A DNA stretch of 31,525 bases from Pseudomonadota bacterium. GTDB lineage: Bacteria > Bdellovibrionota_B > Oligoflexia > Oligoflexales > CAIYRB01. Of the stretch, positions 22,364 to 28,817 are shown in pieces (within the stretch, counting starts at the first letter, position 1; each line of letters begins with the position of its first letter). The stretch spans positions 1-31,525 of the forward strand of contig JANOTL010000198.1 in assembly GCA_031416315.1 (NCBI GenBank), in the 5' to 3' direction. The position numbers and the translations under genes are program-made. The notes under the pieces were generated by a model. The model had not been told where the DNA came from. It was given only the letters and a program-made list of their open reading frames with translations, and searched no databases.

Positions 22364-23572
22364 ATGGCTTCGAGGGCGCGTAATGCTTGGCTGACCTCTC
22401 TCACGCTCGTTCTCTGGACGACCCCGGCGTCGGCCACCGAGTTCGGTCTGATGCGCGCCATGCAGTCGGGCCCGATCGGAGACGCGCCGGCGATGGCGGG
22501 CCTCGAGAAGATCGAGGCAGAGGCTCAGTTCAGCCTCTATCGTACGTTCGGCAACTACACCCTGAACGACGACACCGACTCCCGCGCCTCGGCGACCGGC
22601 GTGAAGTCGCGGGTCGCAGCAGGCGGCGGCTTCTCGCCGACCAAGCAGTTCTCGCTCTCGGGCTTCATCGACGCGACCGTCGCGAGCGACTACGACGAGA
22701 ACCAAACGCGCGGCACCTACGACAGCACCTACGATTCCGGCCTCTACCGGCACGAGCTCGCGCTCTTCGGCATGTTCAAGACGAGCGGCCTCGTCTTCGG
22801 CGGCGGCATGGGCCTCGTCCTGATCGGCAGCGAGACCAAGGAGTTCGAATACGACGACGACAAGTACGAGCTCGACATCGGCTCGGCCGCGATGCCGGTC
22901 CTGCGCCTCTTCGGCGGCCTGTCGACGAAAGAGTTCGACGGCACCCTCGGCGTGCGTTTCTTCAGCAAAGGCACGGCGGTCGTGACCGCCAAGGACGCGA
23001 CCGGCACCGAGTCGGAGTACGACGTGGTGCGCCGCGCCCCGGCCGAGGTCCACGCCGACGCCAAGATCAAGTTCAACGGCGGCTACGTCTCCGGCATGGC
23101 GGGCGTCCTCCTCAGCGGCCAGGCGTCCGAGCAAGTCGACGAATTCTCGACGCGCTACGTCGTCACGCCCGACGGCAAAAAGAAGCGCGAGACCGGCATC
23201 GCGCGCATCAACACCAATACGTACAAGTTCGGCGTCGGCGGCCGCTTCGACCCGGTGAAGGTCTTTGGCATCATGGCCGCCCTGCAGTATCAAACCTCGG
23301 CCGCGGCTCAAGACGCGTACGTGATGCCCGAGCAGGAGAACTTGGGAGGGCTGCGCTTCGACCTCGGCGGCGAGGTCAACATCCAGAAGTTTCGCGGCAT
23401 GCTCGATTTCGGTTACGTGCTCGAGTCGTCCACGTCCTACACCGTCGAAGACAACGACCGCAGCGCCACGAGCGTCGACCGCACGCTGAAGCCCGCGCTA
23501 GCGAAAGGCGACAAGGTGAAGGTGTCCCAAGGCGCTCTGTCGGTTACCCTCGGGGGCGGCCTCGCCATTTGA
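22364..23572 (+). CDS. Probable outer-membrane beta-barrel protein
   Basis: GGAG SD then MASRARNAWLTSLTLVLWTTPASA (signal peptide); alternating amphipathic strands rich in Gly/Phe/Tyr; ends LSVTLGGGLAI. Confidence 0.7.
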   Translation: MASRARNAWLTSLTLVLWTTPASATEFGLMRAMQSGPIGDAPAMAGLEKIEAEAQFSLYRTFGNYTLNDDTDSRASATGVKSRVAAGGGFSPTKQFSLSGFIDATVASDYDENQTRGTYDSTYDSGLYRHELALFGMFKTSGLVFGGGMGLVLIGSETKEFEYDDDKYELDIGSAAMPVLRLFGGLSTKEFDGTLGVRFFSKGTAVVTAKDATGTESEYDVVRRAPAEVHADAKIKFNGGYVSGMAGVLLSGQASEQVDEFSTRYVVTPDGKKKRETGIARINTNTYKFGVGGRFDPVKVFGIMAALQYQTSAAAQDAYVMPEQENLGGLRFDLGGEVNIQKFRGMLDFGYVLESSTSYTVEDNDRSATSVDRTLKPALAKGDKVKVSQGALSVTLGGGLAI

Positions 23573-24204
23573 GCGCGCTGATCGACATTTCCCCGAGCCT
23601 CTCGCCCAGAACGGCCGTGTGGCCTGGGGACGTCGCTTTCTCCCGCCAGGTCGCGCTCGACGTGCATGCCGGCCACAACATCACGCTTTCGAGCGTGACG
23701 AGCACGGTGCACGTCGGGGCGCATGCGGATGCTCCCTCGCACTTTCACCGGGACGGGGCGACGATCGACGCGGTGGCGCTCGATGCCTACGTGGGTCCGT
23801 GCACGGTCGTGACGGTGTCGGTGGCGCCTGGCGGCCTGATTCGCGCCGGTGACTGCGCGACGGCCTTGCGACACGGTGCGAAACGGATTCTCTTTCGCAC
23901 GCTGACGCAGCCGGATCCGGACCGCTTCAACGAGGATTTCGCCGCTTTCGATCCCGAGGCCGTGCGGGCGATGGGCGCTGCGGGGGTAGTCCTGATCGGG
24001 ATCGACACGCCGTCGGTGGATTCCTTCAGCTCGAAAGAGCTGCCGGCGCATCAAGAGCTCCACAAGTTCGGCGTCCGCAATCTCGAGGGACTCGTGCTCG
24101 CGCACGTCGCGGACGGCGACTACGAGCTGATCGCATTGCCGCTCAAGCTTTCCGGCTGCGACGCGAGCCCCGTGCGTGCCGTGTTGCGCATGAGAGACAA
24201 CTAG
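23569..24204 (+). CDS. kynB: Kynurenine formamidase (arylformamidase, cyclase family)
   Basis: TTG start overlapping the upstream stop; DISP..VWPGD, HVGAHADAPSH, GIDTPSVD, LEGLVL, YELIALPLK, DASPVRAVL. Confidence 0.85.
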   Translation: MSALIDISPSLSPRTAVWPGDVAFSRQVALDVHAGHNITLSSVTSTVHVGAHADAPSHFHRDGATIDAVALDAYVGPCTVVTVSVAPGGLIRAGDCATALRHGAKRILFRTLTQPDPDRFNEDFAAFDPEAVRAMGAAGVVLIGIDTPSVDSFSSKELPAHQELHKFGVRNLEGLVLAHVADGDYELIALPLKLSGCDASPVRAVLRMRDN

Positions 24205-24223
24205 GGCCTTTTTTCAACGCCGT

Positions 24224-24272
24224 AAAAAAGGGTCGTTCCCGGTGGTCTCCCCCCGGGTTCTCCCTTTTCTTT
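24224..24272. terminator. Bidirectional intrinsic terminator (sRNA on minus, kynB on plus)
   Basis: Minus strand: AAAAGGG-AGAA-CCCGGGGG-GAGA-CCACCGGG-AACGA-CCCUUUUUU. On the plus strand the hairpin is followed by TTTTCTTT. Confidence 0.7.
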
Positions 24273-24389
24273 GAGCGATGTCTGAGGATTTTGTGGGGAT
24301 CTGGCGGAAGGACTCTCTAGGACTAGAGAGCATTGGGGTAGGATTTCGGGAGGTTTGGCTGAGGATCAACATCGCCCCGCGTCATCACA
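24224..24389 (-). ncRNA. Candidate sigma54-dependent small RNA with repeated UCC motifs
   Basis: Bounded by a perfect sigma54 promoter and a terminator. Closing stem 24366-24377 with 24273-24285, internal hairpin 24313-24330, eight UCC motifs, no convincing ORF. Confidence 0.7.
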
Positions 24390-24399
24390 CCAGTTCCAT

Positions 24400-24415
24400 T
24401 GCAACGCGAGTGCCA
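24400..24415 (-). promoter_or_regulatory. Sigma54 (-24/-12) promoter
   Basis: Minus strand TGGCAC-TCGCG-TTGCA, an exact match to TGGCAC-N5-TTGCA, in an intergenic region. Confidence 0.85.
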
Positions 24416-24652
24416 ACTCTTTAGACGGTCGCAGATGTCGTTTCGCCTTTTTCGCGCGGTGCGCTATTTCTCGCGTAACACCGCGTTCCGCCGCGTTCTC
24501 AAGGCGGCGGCCGCGCGGCTGTAGGGCGCGCAGAGTCGTCGTTACGCGCCGATTCGACCCGAGGGTCCGGTATACTTTTGCGACTCGGACCAAAATCGAT
24601 GCGCGTCCGTCCGAAAACGAGACCAGGCGCGTCCAGATCGAGGAGGTAAGCG

Positions 24653-25300
24653 ATGCGGTGGGTGATTTTGGTGACGGGAGTTACCGGGATCCTTGGCGGA
24701 ATCATCGGCACGCGGTGGCGTCAGGAGACGTTTCCAGCGCCAGGTGTAGTCGCCCGGAGTCAGGTGAATGGCGGATCGGCGTCGGTCGGCTCGGGCAACG
24801 CGGCCTCACCCCAGGCCGGCCCGCACACGGACGCGGGTGGACGGCAGCCGGACGCGAACGCGTCCGCCCTCGTGCACCATTGCCACGACGGGGACACCTG
24901 CCGCCTCGGCTTCGGGCCGGGTCAGTCGGTCTGGCTCAACGTCCGCCTGGCAGGGATCGACACGCCAGAAATCAAGGGCCGAGGCGGCCCCGGCCAACCG
25001 CTCGGGGACGCCGCGCGCGAGGCGATCAACGCTGCAGCGAAAGGCAAAGTCGTCTCGGTTCGTCAGGTCGACCTGGATCAATACAATCGGCCCATCGTCG
25101 AGCTGGCCGTCGACGGCCGGATTCTGAACCTCGAGCTCGTCGAGCAGGGCTTAGCAGAAGTCTACCGGGGCGCCACGAAGCGGCTCGACCGAGCTCCCTA
25201 TCTCGCCTCGGAAGAGCGGGCGCGCCGCGCGAAGCGAGGCATCTGGGGGCTCTCGGGGTACCAGTCGCCAAAGGCCTATCGCAGGAGCAAGTCGCACTGA
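24653..25300 (+). CDS. Thermonuclease (staphylococcal nuclease family), N-terminally anchored or exported
   Basis: GGAGGT SD; hydrophobic N-terminus; DGDT, VRLAGIDTPE, DQYNR, NLELVEQGLA, RGIW. Confidence 0.92.
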   Translation: MRWVILVTGVTGILGGIIGTRWRQETFPAPGVVARSQVNGGSASVGSGNAASPQAGPHTDAGGRQPDANASALVHHCHDGDTCRLGFGPGQSVWLNVRLAGIDTPEIKGRGGPGQPLGDAAREAINAAAKGKVVSVRQVDLDQYNRPIVELAVDGRILNLELVEQGLAEVYRGATKRLDRAPYLASEERARRAKRGIWGLSGYQSPKAYRRSKSH

Positions 25301-25359: not shown

Positions 25360-26148
25360 CTAAAGGACCGGGTCCGTGGAGATCCGCACGATCTGCTTCT
25401 TCACGACCTTGATCTCGTAACCGTCGCGATCGTACTGCCGCGCGTAGAATTGGATCCAGTTGCCACCCGTCGCGCGCCAGACCACGATGCGGCGGCGGTC
25501 GCGGCAGGTGAACTTGATCGATTCGCCGATGTTCTGCTTCGAGGTCATGAAGCAGCCGTACTTCTCGGAGAGGACGCGTACGATCACACGATACAGATGG
25601 TCGAAGTTCGGAACCTGCGCTTTGGTCGTGGCGAAGAACTTGGCGCCGCCGACCATACCGAAGACGCCGTCGTGGTAGTCGATCGGGTTCTCGATCGCCC
25701 GCGTGACGGCGAGGCGCGCCAGCTCGGGGTTCGAGCGCAGGCCGTACGGCATGGAGGCGAGGCGCTCGGGCGTCAGCATCGCGTCTTCGAAGATGATCGC
25801 CGGGTTGGTCTCGTAGCGCTCGATCGAGCCGGAAAGCACCTCGTCCCATTCGAGCGCAGCGTCCGGCACAGGGCTGCTCGCGGGCGAAGGGCCGATGTCC
25901 TCAGAGTCGAGGGGCTCGCCCTCGAAGCTCGGGTCGTCGTCGAGATCGACGGCCCGAGCCGTGCGCGCGACGCCGCTCCGCGATGGCGCGGACTCGGCGT
26001 CGACGCTCGTCCGCGTCGGGTTGCGGCGGGCGGGGGTCGCGAGCTTTCCTTCGCCCGGGTGAATACAGCCGAAGGCGCCGGTCAGGAGGACCGTCGCGAG
26101 CAGCAGCTCGAAGGAGCAGCGGCGCCTGCGCTCAGGAAGCTTTTGCAT
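25360..26148 (-). CDS. Hypothetical lipoprotein
   Basis: Basic N-terminus, hydrophobic stretch and GAFGC lipobox; overlaps the end of the cyclase gene by 17 nt. Confidence 0.7.
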   Translation of the reverse strand: MQKLPERRRRCSFELLLATVLLTGAFGCIHPGEGKLATPARRNPTRTSVDAESAPSRSGVARTARAVDLDDDPSFEGEPLDSEDIGPSPASSPVPDAALEWDEVLSGSIERYETNPAIIFEDAMLTPERLASMPYGLRSNPELARLAVTRAIENPIDYHDGVFGMVGGAKFFATTKAQVPNFDHLYRVIVRVLSEKYGCFMTSKQNIGESIKFTCRDRRRIVVWRATGGNWIQFYARQYDRDGYEIKVVKKQIVRISTDPVL

Positions 26149-28531
26149 CTTTTTTCGCCTCGCGCGTGAACGCGAACTCGCAGAGATATTCGATCAGCTT
26201 GTCGCTCTGCTGGTCGTTGACGTTCGTCAGCATGACGCCGTGCGTGTACTCGCCGCCGTCGGTGTAGCCCCAGCGCACTTCGCCCTGCAGTACCTCGATG
26301 CCGTCGCGGGCAAGAAGGCCTTTCAGCGTGCCGGCGGCCGCGTCGAGGACGATGTTCATGCGGGTACCCTTCGCCAGGAGCTGCGGGAGTCGGATCGAGA
26401 GGCCGGTGTGCGAGAAGTTGACGAGCTGGCCTTCGCCGAAGTCACAGGAGAGTTGGAACTTCGAGGGGTCGTGGACGGGCCAGCGCTGGTCGACACGTTC
26501 AATGTTAGCACACTTGCGGAAGCCCTCGAGGGCCGCGGCGCGGGTCTGCGGGTCCTGGTAAAACGGGTCGTACTCGTACGCCTCGACGAGCTCCGAATGA
26601 TGCTTGATGCGGATAAAACGCTTGGTGAACGCCTCTTGCGGGAGGCCGATGCCGCGCACGAGGTCGTCCGTCGTCGCGCCGATGAGGACCGAGTGCATCT
26701 CGCAGGCGCCCTCGAGGCGCTTCGCGAAGTTGACGCCGTTGCCGACGACGGTGAAGTCGATCCGCGAGCCGCTGCCGAGGTCGCCCAAGTAACACGAGGC
26801 CGTGTTGATGCCGATGCGCAAGGGGTACACGGGCTCGCCGGCCGCGGCCGCCTCGAGGTTACATTTCAGGTTGTCCTCCTGAATCGCGACGCCACATCGT
26901 AGCGCCTGTTCCGCGTGATCGGGTGAGGACGAGTCGGAGTCAAAGCGGTAGCCGAAGTAGCAGAGGAGACCGTCACCGAGCGTCTTGTCGATGACTCCTC
27001 CGTGCAGATGAATGGTCTCGCCGATCTTGGCGAGCATCTTCTTCAGGTTCTCGAAGGCCATGCGCGGGAGCATGTTCTCGGCGAGGAGCGAGAAGCCGAC
27101 CACGTCGACGAACATCAGCGTCACGACGCGCTCGCGGGCCTCGAAGCTGATCTGCTCGGGATTTTTCAAAATCGCCTTCAAATCGTCCGCGTTGACAGAG
27201 CCTTCCAGCGCCAGGCGGAGGAGCTGGACCTTGCGCTCGCTCCTGCGGTTCTTCTCGGCGAAAACGGTGAGGGCGGCGCCGACGTAACCGACCGCGGGAA
27301 AGAGCCAGGGGATGACGAGCGACATATAAGCGAAGCCGTAGATCGACATCAGGATGCCGCCGAGAAGTCCGCCGAGCATCGCGATCCAGAAGGTCGTGGC
27401 CGCGCATTTGACGGCGACGACGACGCCGACGACGACGGCGAGGGCGATCAGAGACTCGCCGTAGGCGAGCGGCTTCAGCCACTGTCCGGTGAGGACGCTG
27501 TTCAGCATCGTCGCGATGACGAAGCCGCCCGGTGTGTAGCCGAAGGGCGTGAGCTTGAAGTCGGTGTTGCCGGTGAACATCTGCGGGATGATGAGGACGA
27601 CGTCGCCCTCCTCGATCAGCTTCGAAGGCTTGCCGTCGCGGGCGAGCTGGATCAAGCCCTTCATGCTCTTGTTCTTCTCGGAGAACTTCGACGGCATGGG
27701 GAAGTTGACGGTCAACATGCCGTGGTTGTCGATCGGGACGAGGTGGCCGTCGAGGTAGAGGTGGCCGCGCTCGATCTTGCGCTCCTTCGCCAGATACAGC
27801 GAAAGATGCGCGATCGCTTGATCGTCGGCCATCCGCAGAAAGGGCTGGATCTGGCCCGAGCCGGAATAGAGAAAATGGCCGATGTCGCCGAAGACCGGCT
27901 GCAGCTCTTTTGCCGCGCCGTAGGCGTACCAGCCGCGATCGTCGGTCATCGCGGGGAGCTCGCTTTCGGCGAACTTGCCACCGGGCGAGCCGAGCATCCC
28001 GGAGAGCTGATACGAAGGCCGCGTCAGGTCGAGCGCCTCGCGGTAGCGAATCGGCGCCGGCGTCACGAACGAGCCGACGATGACCGGCACGTCGAGCGAC
28101 TTCAAAACGTCGATCGTCTGGTCGAGGTCGCCGGTGAGATCATCGGCACGCGAGAACATGGCGTCGACGAAGATGGCCCGCGGCTTGTTGGCGGCCAAGG
28201 TTTTGAAGACGCGGGCCCACTCTTCGAGCGAGAGCACCCAGGTGCCGATCTTGGCGAAGGTCGAGTCGTCGATGGAGTAGAGCTTCAGCTTCGGGCTGAT
28301 CTCGGGGCTCTTGCCGACGAACTCGCGGATGCGGAACATCAGCGGATGGGCGATGCGCGAGTCGAGATAGGAGCCGAGCTCCGAGCGGAAGGCGAAGACG
28401 AGCACGCCCGCCCACAAGACGCCGACGAGAAAGGCCCAACGCCAGCCGATCGACGTGCGGCCCGACATGCCTTGCATGTTGCCGCCTTCGGAAGCCGCGC
28501 TTCCGCCCCTCGACTTTTGTTTGTCCGCCAT
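26132..28531 (-). CDS. CHASE2-sensor class III adenylate cyclase with a C-terminal PilZ domain
   Basis: N-terminal TM, CHASE2-like region (LYSIDD, IFVDAMF, TPFG..PG), three TMs, cyclase motifs MFVDVVGFS, DKTLGDG, RIGINT, DFTVVGNGVNFAKRLE, then RVDQR...NFSHTG...GEVRW. Start taken at MADKQ. Confidence 0.88.
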   Translation of the reverse strand: MADKQKSRGGSAASEGGNMQGMSGRTSIGWRWAFLVGVLWAGVLVFAFRSELGSYLDSRIAHPLMFRIREFVGKSPEISPKLKLYSIDDSTFAKIGTWVLSLEEWARVFKTLAANKPRAIFVDAMFSRADDLTGDLDQTIDVLKSLDVPVIVGSFVTPAPIRYREALDLTRPSYQLSGMLGSPGGKFAESELPAMTDDRGWYAYGAAKELQPVFGDIGHFLYSGSGQIQPFLRMADDQAIAHLSLYLAKERKIERGHLYLDGHLVPIDNHGMLTVNFPMPSKFSEKNKSMKGLIQLARDGKPSKLIEEGDVVLIIPQMFTGNTDFKLTPFGYTPGGFVIATMLNSVLTGQWLKPLAYGESLIALAVVVGVVVAVKCAATTFWIAMLGGLLGGILMSIYGFAYMSLVIPWLFPAVGYVGAALTVFAEKNRRSERKVQLLRLALEGSVNADDLKAILKNPEQISFEARERVVTLMFVDVVGFSLLAENMLPRMAFENLKKMLAKIGETIHLHGGVIDKTLGDGLLCYFGYRFDSDSSSPDHAEQALRCGVAIQEDNLKCNLEAAAAGEPVYPLRIGINTASCYLGDLGSGSRIDFTVVGNGVNFAKRLEGACEMHSVLIGATTDDLVRGIGLPQEAFTKRFIRIKHHSELVEAYEYDPFYQDPQTRAAALEGFRKCANIERVDQRWPVHDPSKFQLSCDFGEGQLVNFSHTGLSIRLPQLLAKGTRMNIVLDAAAGTLKGLLARDGIEVLQGEVRWGYTDGGEYTHGVMLTNVNDQQSDKLIEYLCEFAFTREAKKDAKAS

Positions 28532-28538
28532 GGTCTTG

Positions 28539-28566
28539 GTTTCGGCGCGTCCCGCCGCGGCATTGA
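28539..28566 (-). promoter_or_regulatory. Sigma28 (FliA)-like promoter, probably leaderless
   Basis: Minus strand TCAAT-N15-GCCGAAAC-N7-ATG(28531). Confidence 0.5.
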
Positions 28567-28817
28567 GGCGGCGGCGAGGGGGACGCGTCAGAAAGACCGG
28601 CCACCTGGCCAATCTCGCGCTTGCGCCTCTCGCAATTCCCAGCTATACGTTTTCATCAATCGCGGACTTGTGCCGCGGGGTCCCCCCAGAGCGTATCCCG
28701 ACACCCTTCGTTTTCAGACGAAGGCGTCGCTTTGGCTCCGTATTCGAGTCGTGAGTGATCCCGGGCCCAACGGTCTGGATCATGTTGATTCTGCGGCCAT
28801 ATTGGGGGACCCGCGCT

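Follow-up and report, generated by a model that had tools for sequence, protein, structure and literature searches.

A conserved sigma-54-type non-coding RNA family predicted in the Oligoflexales, with a phased, G-poor loop that may act as a protein decoy

On comparative sequence evidence, a short element found in genomes of the order Oligoflexales is a real, conserved and uncatalogued RNA family, whose transcript is predicted. In the window, by which we mean the whole stretch of 31,525 nucleotides that was analysed, the predicted non-coding RNA runs on the minus strand from position 24388 to 24224 (about 165 nt, or about 174 nt with a 3' pairing tail; the ends are taken from promoter spacing, a Y/R start and conserved structure). 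Its best reading seems to be that of an inducible protein-decoy RNA, which we hold tentatively, at a little short of even confidence. The length, composition and phase of its loop are kept in the absence of a seed, and this would fit a protein platform better than a pairing sRNA.

The gap that holds the element lies between kynB (arylformamidase; 23572 to 24204, plus strand; TIGR03035, just over the cut-off) and a gene for a SNase-family nuclease (24653 to 25300, plus strand; PF00565). It measures 448 bp, against 450 bp in the first-pass annotation, all of whose described features were recovered at their positions in the window. The convergent neighbour kynB is not fixed across the family, and the divergent nuclease gene is adjacent in some homologs only. 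The sigma-54 (-24/-12) promoter at 24415 to 24400 (minus strand) has the exact consensus and is the sole exact match in the window; 34 exact matches exist genome-wide. The eight UCC triplets between 24365 and 24288, the strands of a long-range stem at 24376 to 24369 and 24281 to 24274, a central hairpin at 24331 to 24312 and a 3' hairpin with a GAGA loop and U6 at 24268 to 24224 (fold z -3.8) are all present on the same strand. A sigma-70 promoter scan and a strict terminator scan each gave no hit. The RNA features in this window alone are not decisive, since the whole RNA folds here no better than its shuffles (z -0.53), the eight UCC are not above dinucleotide shuffles (mean 6.0, p 0.13) and the genome contains as many as 34 promoter matches. 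The UCC number does exceed that of mononucleotide shuffles (mean 2.9, p 0.001). Of the 199,410 UCC positions of the genome, 277 open a cluster of at least eight UCC within about 90 nt, and two of the eight seen here sit inside the central hairpin.

The case for a family is made by the homologs. By BLAST, patterns and two covariance models, the element was found in 19 of 95 genomes of the order, spread over 8 of its 16 families, and the promoter and stem are kept in these genomes without a conserved open reading frame, which bears out the earlier proposal of a stand-alone, minus-strand, sigma-54-type non-coding unit. Ten of the 12 genomes in the window's own family carry it, one copy being cut by a contig end, and it was not found in the other two (G002 and G006); nine further genomes belong to seven other families. 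The anatomy described below is based on 19 sequences, namely those from 18 genomes and one metagenomic sequence (L169). As 18 genomes of the order and one metagenomic sequence made up the training set of the second covariance model (R2), the scores it gives these 18 members are circular. Six members (G013, G014, G016, G024, G025 and G028), however, were found by the first model (R1) without being part of its training set, and synteny with kynB, an amidohydrolase gene or the gene of a CHASE2 cyclase independently supports G024, G025 and G035. Weak R2 hits occurred in 15 genomes; in the 13 that were inspected (leaving aside G079, G080 and a second hit in G035) they represent other sigma-54 promoters or chance, with the exception of one in G085. 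RpoN is present in 92 of the 95 genomes, and the patchy distribution of the element is therefore not explained by the presence of this sigma factor.

Beyond the order, model R1 found no member in 36 genomes of the class and model R2 none in two distant genomes. A loose pattern applied to 6 of 64 metagenome parts gave two true members in 120 loci, and none of 57 loci on viral contigs was a member. An exact 19-mer scan of species genomes returned 29 stretches, of which four are family members and 25 are due to chance. A short-loop pattern run over the order gave noise only, and tracking one neighbour gene added no member in 30 loci.

The neighbours of the element vary in identity and direction, and in G021 the element lies in the opposite orientation between kynB and the nuclease gene. 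As it is kept as a unit beside changing neighbours and in either orientation, it appears to be a stand-alone unit and not a cis-acting leader. Among these neighbours, a gene for a CHASE2-adenylate/guanylate cyclase-PilZ fusion (26132 to 28612, minus strand, in the window) recurs beside the RNA and kynB across the order. Another, at L340:4819-6081 (plus strand), encodes a protein of about 420 to 460 amino acids without a Pfam or NCBIfam match; it has relatives in 93 of the 95 genomes and adjoins the RNA in G024, G025 and G035.

The first-pass annotation had recognised no named family, and the search against Rfam 15 agrees with this: no match in the window reached a gathering score, the best E-values in six member loci were 2.1 and 4.4, and five further member loci gave one chance hit elsewhere in a locus. 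6S RNA, a long rod with a small central bubble, gave no RF00013 match at the element, the 6S RNA of this genome being located on another contig. In the accessible literature on Oligoflexales or Bdellovibrio sRNAs, neither a regulatory RNA of the order nor a description of the element was found; an uncurated listing in the supplements of motif surveys is possible. A small-ORF mRNA was considered and rejected: there is no conserved reading frame in 12 homologs, in which an ATG in the closing stem opens frames of 1 to more than 50 codons with unrelated sequences. Retron, MITE and type III antitoxin readings were likewise rejected, as the element is single-copy in this genome and lacks a reverse transcriptase or a fixed toxin neighbour.

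The promoter stands at a fixed spacing before all 19 tabulated sequences, and RpoN is encoded in this genome. A start near 24389 had been predicted; G24388 is the likelier base, with a purine at that offset in 14 of the 19 sequences. Further upstream, a de novo 11-mer of the type CAAAA-N-T(A/G)(T/A)AC was found before 16 homologs (score 217, against 134 to 146 in eight shuffled sets). In 12 of these 16 it lies 108 to 123 bp upstream of the -24 box; in this genome the distance is 165 bp, and the CAAAA-N-TATAC copy at 24569 to 24580 (minus strand), accompanied by an inverted half-site at 24591 to 24595, is a candidate site for an enhancer-binding protein. Here the motif could double as the -10 box of the divergent nuclease gene, but it persists in G004 and G005, where no divergent gene starts. 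The genome encodes 18 near-full-length sigma-54 activator domains, and the motif may well be the enhancer for one of these activators. No clear regulon carrying it emerged among 195 loose sigma-54 sites, and no activator gene lies among the neighbours that were scanned.

Three structural elements follow the 5' leader. The closing stem, P1, pairs GGCGAUG (24376 to 24370) with CAUCGCY (24280 to 24274), both strands being near-invariant; 98% of its alignment cells are paired, with G-U alternatives. P1 shows few double changes, some of which depend on a doubtful placement of G016 in the alignment. In this genome P1 has an ensemble probability of 0.26; of 12 homologs, eight reach 0.5 or more and three, this genome included, have a low value. 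The long stem had been described with an outer extension, which is not a family feature among the homologs. P1 closes a loop of 82 to 94 nt with 7 to 18% G in 18 of the 19 sequences, the exception being G025, which has a loop of 52 nt and neither of the other two hairpins. Within the loop lies P2 (24331 to 24312), 8 bp with a GUCC loop; a mid-loop hairpin of differing sequence is predicted in all 18 full-length loops. Downstream of P1 comes P3 (24268 to 24226), a GC-rich, CCGGGG-type hairpin with an internal loop and an inner stem at 24257 to 24238. It is found in 17 of the 19 sequences, and its lower stem pairs cognately (p 0.003 over 11 spread genomes), double changes being present. A terminator with a GAGA loop and U6 had been proposed, and the U6 run (24229 to 24224) is indeed present here; at least five U follow the hairpin in only 4 of 17 homologs, so a reading as an intrinsic terminator is not general. 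The region of P3 (24205 to 24270) has A/U runs on either side and folds on both strands, and the hairpin probably serves as the end of the kynB transcript on the plus strand as well. Finally, the leader (24388 to 24377), which is identical bar one base in five genomes and variable elsewhere, may pair with a 3' tail at 24220 to 24215 to form a further stem, P0. The evidence for this pairing is suggestive: cognate leader-tail pairs score better than others with p 0.008 in 17 sequences and 0.019 in 11 (overall range 0.005 to 0.02), as compared to 0.09 and 0.41 for a control window. In this genome the duplex is weak: at -8.5 kcal/mol, the cognate tail ranks seventh among 17 tails for this leader.

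It could be imagined that the function resides in these conserved stems, that is, in P1, P3 and a possible three-way junction with P0, through recognition by a protein or nuclease or through GlmY-like mimicry, and that the loop arms are only spacers or a Rho-dependent terminator of the RNA itself. The near-invariance of P1, the conserved core of P3 and the cognate pairing of P0 all speak for this, and Rho-dependent termination at P3 would account for the many homologs without a U-tract. Plain spacers, however, need no phasing of 11 to 12 nt such as that of the arms; G025 and G035 lack P3 and yet keep P1 and the G-poor loop; and P0 is weak or absent in G008, G014, G018 and L169. We therefore consider a function centred on the stems unlikely.

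Concerning the strand, it had been argued that a G-U pair and a GNRA loop favour the minus strand. The first half of this argument stands, since the G-U variants of P1 are workable on that strand only, while the GNRA loop is not a family feature. The promoter, moreover, sets the minus strand in all members. These two observations, together with the counts of GGA, argue against a CsrB-like sponge on the plus strand. The motif of CsrB and RsmZ is GGA, and the plus strand has eight GGA in this genome, which also contains csrA (PF02599). Across the members, however, the antisense strand has between one and eight GGA, mostly no more than four, and csrA lies directly before a fliW-like gene in what we take to be the flagellin-hook operon, an arrangement that points to a protein antagonist. 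In the predicted RNA itself the loops of the 19 sequences contain at most one GGA each, and Rfam gives no match, so that the element differs from CsrB and RsmZ, although it shares with them a short motif repeated in a non-coding RNA and the proposed titration of a protein (PMC13501541). A cis-antisense role towards the downstream gene, which is often convergent, is contradicted by neighbours that differ in identity and direction. Taken together, a plus-strand sponge or a cis-antisense RNA is a most improbable explanation.

The two single-stranded arms of the loop carry the most unusual signal. Arm A (24369 to 24332, 38 nt) and arm B (24311 to 24281, 31 nt) are G-poor and predicted to be single-stranded, and each seems to be made up of about three units of 11 to 12 nt, consisting of an A-tract and a pyrimidine tract. 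Across the homologs the arms are 29 to 42 nt long, again with about three units each, and the C/G ratio of the loop is 1.9 to 4.4; segments that are as G-poor and C-rich as this one occur 61 times elsewhere in the genome. The statistics were compiled from 15 of the 18 full-length sequences, the near-duplicates G007, G010 and L169 being dropped. Compared to dinucleotide shuffles, the arms are enriched in CAAA (29 against 18.6), CUUC (21 against 10.7) and UCUU (16 against 7.5), and also in AAAU. The autocorrelation of A, C and pyrimidines peaks at lags 11 to 12 and has troughs at 6 to 7; the peak reaches z 3 to 5 against dinucleotide shuffles in each arm, and about 3 for C alone, values that are overstated in the pooled set because the homologs share ancestry. 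When each family is represented by one genome and the corrected arm boundaries are used, z amounts to 5.1, a value that no shuffle out of 1000 attained once the choice of lag was corrected for. The best lag pair is 11-12 or 12-13 in 11 of the 15 homologs, G011 and G016 showing little periodicity at 11 to 12. At lags 11 to 12 the signal is absent from the upstream DNA and from 30 of the 61 other G-poor segments. Between families, arm similarity is near the level of shuffles (0.44 against 0.40; the arms are nearly saturated), which indicates that no seed is conserved. Such spacing, kept where the sequence is not, is uncommon and lends itself to a direct test.

An A periodicity of about 11 bp can be a feature of DNA, and the one seen here is compatible with such an origin. 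The element might thus act at the level of DNA, as an orphan promoter with phased A-tracts and inverted repeats, no functional RNA being made. The shuffle-level fold of the whole RNA in this genome and the scarce covariation of P1 agree with that. On the other hand, P1 shows G-U substitutions and P3 double changes, P2 varies in sequence, the depletion of G is strand-specific, and the upstream DNA has no such period. We regard a DNA element as very unlikely.

The first-pass annotation saw in the element a mirror image of CsrB, either a repressor that masks SD or GGA sequences by many UCC motifs or a sponge. The sponge half fits best, and the homologs do not bear out the masking half. In the arms of 15 homologs UCC occurs 35 times, in comparison with 27.7±4.3 in mononucleotide and 38.6±3.8 in dinucleotide shuffles, and is thus at shuffle level, which does not support it as the functional motif. 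Anti-SD words are also at the level of shuffles (41 against 33.8 for 4-mers, 12 against 11.2 for 5-mers), as is the summed pairing with the SD consensus (-110.8 against -109.4±6.3 kcal/mol). The search for homologs proposed at the time yielded a kept promoter and stem, together with little covariation in P1 and no excess of UCC. A 16S tail was not found in this assembly.

A multi-site repressor by base pairing, similar to RsaE or the cuckoo RNAs, would have pyrimidine tracts that pair with purine-rich initiation regions and A-tracts that keep these tracts open. SD usage in this genome is strong, with GGAGG and AGGAG at 698 and 670 of 5,344 called genes, compared to about 40 in a control window. 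Pairing of the arms with the SD consensus is somewhat stronger than that of shuffles in this genome (-10.0 against -8.0) and in G001 (-10.9 against -7.6), and a spacing of 11 nt, which is one A-form turn, might favour short duplexes within a closed loop. Over the 15 homologs, however, neither anti-SD words nor SD pairing exceeds chance, and the arms hold no conserved pairing seed, nor was an exposed anti-SD seed of the RsaE or RNAIII kind found in them. In a single genome with crude gene calls, exact complements of 8, 9 and 10 nt occur in 215, 43 and 10 initiation regions (191±29, 49±11 and 12±4 in shuffles), and the best arm duplexes (-38.2 and -30.4) lie within or above those of five shuffles per arm. 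Furthermore, the family words are not strand-enriched in the 5' UTRs or 3' regions of this genome, so no mRNA counterpart is seen, and a trimer model of the arms picked only AT-rich intergenic DNA. A pairing repressor therefore seems doubtful; if the RNA were an ordinary pairing sRNA, it would add one more lineage-specific family.

The protein-decoy reading can be put as follows. A signal would activate an enhancer-binding protein at the upstream site, and sigma-54 polymerase would make the RNA from the conserved promoter. The RNA is predicted to fold into P1, P2 and P3, leaving about 65 to 75 unpaired nucleotides with roughly six units of an A-tract and a pyrimidine tract. A ring-shaped or multi-copy single-strand binder would then load on these units and leave its mRNA targets. 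The strongest sequence conservation lies in P1 and P3, which counts against a decoy, as it is explained there only as a scaffold or a second recognition site. Neither Hfq nor ProQ was found in this genome, which is 93% complete, so that the absence of Hfq is not proven; it does encode Rho, four RRM proteins and one CSD protein. As no regulatory RNA was found for the order in the literature and neither chaperone was detected, the RNA suggests a post-transcriptional circuit that relies on some other protein partner. RRM proteins of Bacteroides bind single-stranded regions of sRNAs (PMC11697453). It is possible, if on the unlikely side, that the ligand is an RRM protein or another binder, and this would represent a new sponge-ligand pair.

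The boldest case is Rho: in its length, its excess of C over G, its spacing and the hairpin that follows it, the loop matches a site at which Rho loads. In the accessible portions of two sources, rut sites are described as 60 to 90 nt long, richer in C than in G, poorly structured and A/C-rich (PMC12360218), and as having a C every 11 to 13 nt and a downstream GC-rich hairpin (PMC6407284). Here the loop has 82 to 94 nt and a C/G ratio of 1.9 to 4.4, and the arms are by prediction largely unpaired, the first of these descriptions being a loose yardstick; C recurs at a lag of 11 to 12, and P3 is present in 17 of the 19 sequences. The roughly six units of the loop match the six subunits of Rho. 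A signal-induced, trans-acting decoy, of which about six phased C/A units would load the hexamer and so lift Rho-dependent termination genome-wide, is a decidedly unlikely reading, and equally so is Rho as the ligand of a decoy in general. The unit of 11 to 12 nt is longer than the repeat of 9 to 10 nt (five bound and four to five of linker) seen by cryo-EM for Rho of E. coli in the accessible part of PMC12360218, and a rut-like loop might merely terminate its own RNA. Rut sites, as far as they are covered by the accessible parts of the two papers (PMC12360218, PMC6407284), act in cis in nascent mRNAs, unlike this separately promoted, stem-closed unit. A trans-acting Rho-decoy RNA was not found in the literature searched, including reviews, which in the portion available name RARE and protein inhibitors (PMC12360218). 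If Rho were the ligand, the RNA would constitute a new way to control termination.

Several known RNAs are reminiscent of the element, each being considered as described in the accessible part of its source. CrcZ of Pseudomonas, 407 nt long, has an RpoN promoter with an enhancer-binding activator, and its six single-stranded A-rich (ARN) stretches titrate hexameric Hfq (PMC4063720). An RpoN promoter with an upstream activator site (here at the sequence level), repeated single-stranded units and a proposed titration are common to both; unlike in CrcZ and CrcY, Hfq was not found here, AAN repeats are not enriched (9 against 9.8), and the A-tract/pyrimidine units lie in one closed loop. The cuckoo or alpha-r14 sRNAs are made of two to four neighbouring hairpins that all present a fixed CCUCCUCCC loop (PMC4615179). 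These RNAs and NfeR1 (PMC10746234) resemble the element in exposing several copies of pyrimidine-rich motifs, but those of the element are degenerate, are found in long arms and show no enrichment of anti-SD words, and hairpins with a CCUCCUCCC loop are lacking. Pxr of Myxococcus has three stem-loops, of which the conserved loop of SL1 is critical, and linked pxrR and pxrK genes (PMC5684412). It shares with the element a predicted sigma-54 promoter with an enhancer and the status of a lineage-restricted sRNA in a former deltaproteobacterial group; the element differs by its one large closed loop and by having no activator among the neighbours scanned. In Bdellovibrio, the nearest studied predatory lineage, the attack-phase RNAs APsRNA1 to 7 and merRNA are stand-alone non-coding RNAs as well; three have FliA promoters, and a sponge role has been proposed for merRNA (PMC3627812). 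By eye, none of these eight has the P1 pair or a G-poor loop in supplement S1 of that paper. On the features compared, the element does not belong to CrcZ, CsrB, cuckoo, Pxr or 6S.

A number of other loci came to light during the searches. In G083 (L318:1501-1715, plus strand) and G086 (L323:1639-1426, minus strand) a sigma-54 promoter lies directly 5' of a group-II-D1D4-4 RNA of Rfam (61 bits, above the gathering score), with a sigma-54 activator gene at 1 to 2 kb in both; the arrangement is probably the same in G079 (contig C25). The RNA of G083 and G086 is possibly a fragment of a group II intron kept as a regulated RNA. The locus in G085 (contig C1; L324:1632-1501, minus strand) has a sigma-54 promoter, a long stem of other sequence and a G-poor, C-rich loop with family words; it is not syntenic and may represent a remote member of the family or an RNA that arose by convergence. 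In G067 (L316:1501-1700, plus strand) and G072 (L317:1501-1680, plus strand) predicted sigma-54 promoters precede structured, ORF-free stretches without an Rfam match, one with a C-rich hairpin loop and the other with a clean intrinsic terminator. A short P1-like stem round a C-rich loop of about 80 nt is present in G006 (contig C88; L328:1501-1590, plus strand), no sigma-54 site being seen upstream. In G000 (contig C16, 26119 to 26300, plus strand) a sigma-54 promoter, accompanied by the candidate enhancer in inverted orientation, precedes a C-rich leader of about 150 nt with 11 UCC and an ORF resembling a secreted protein. Finally, G030 and G039 contain long ORFs with 15 and 4 tandem short matches, respectively, to the C-terminal part of the DNA-binding domain of sigma-54; these are repeat proteins whose unit resembles an RpoN box.
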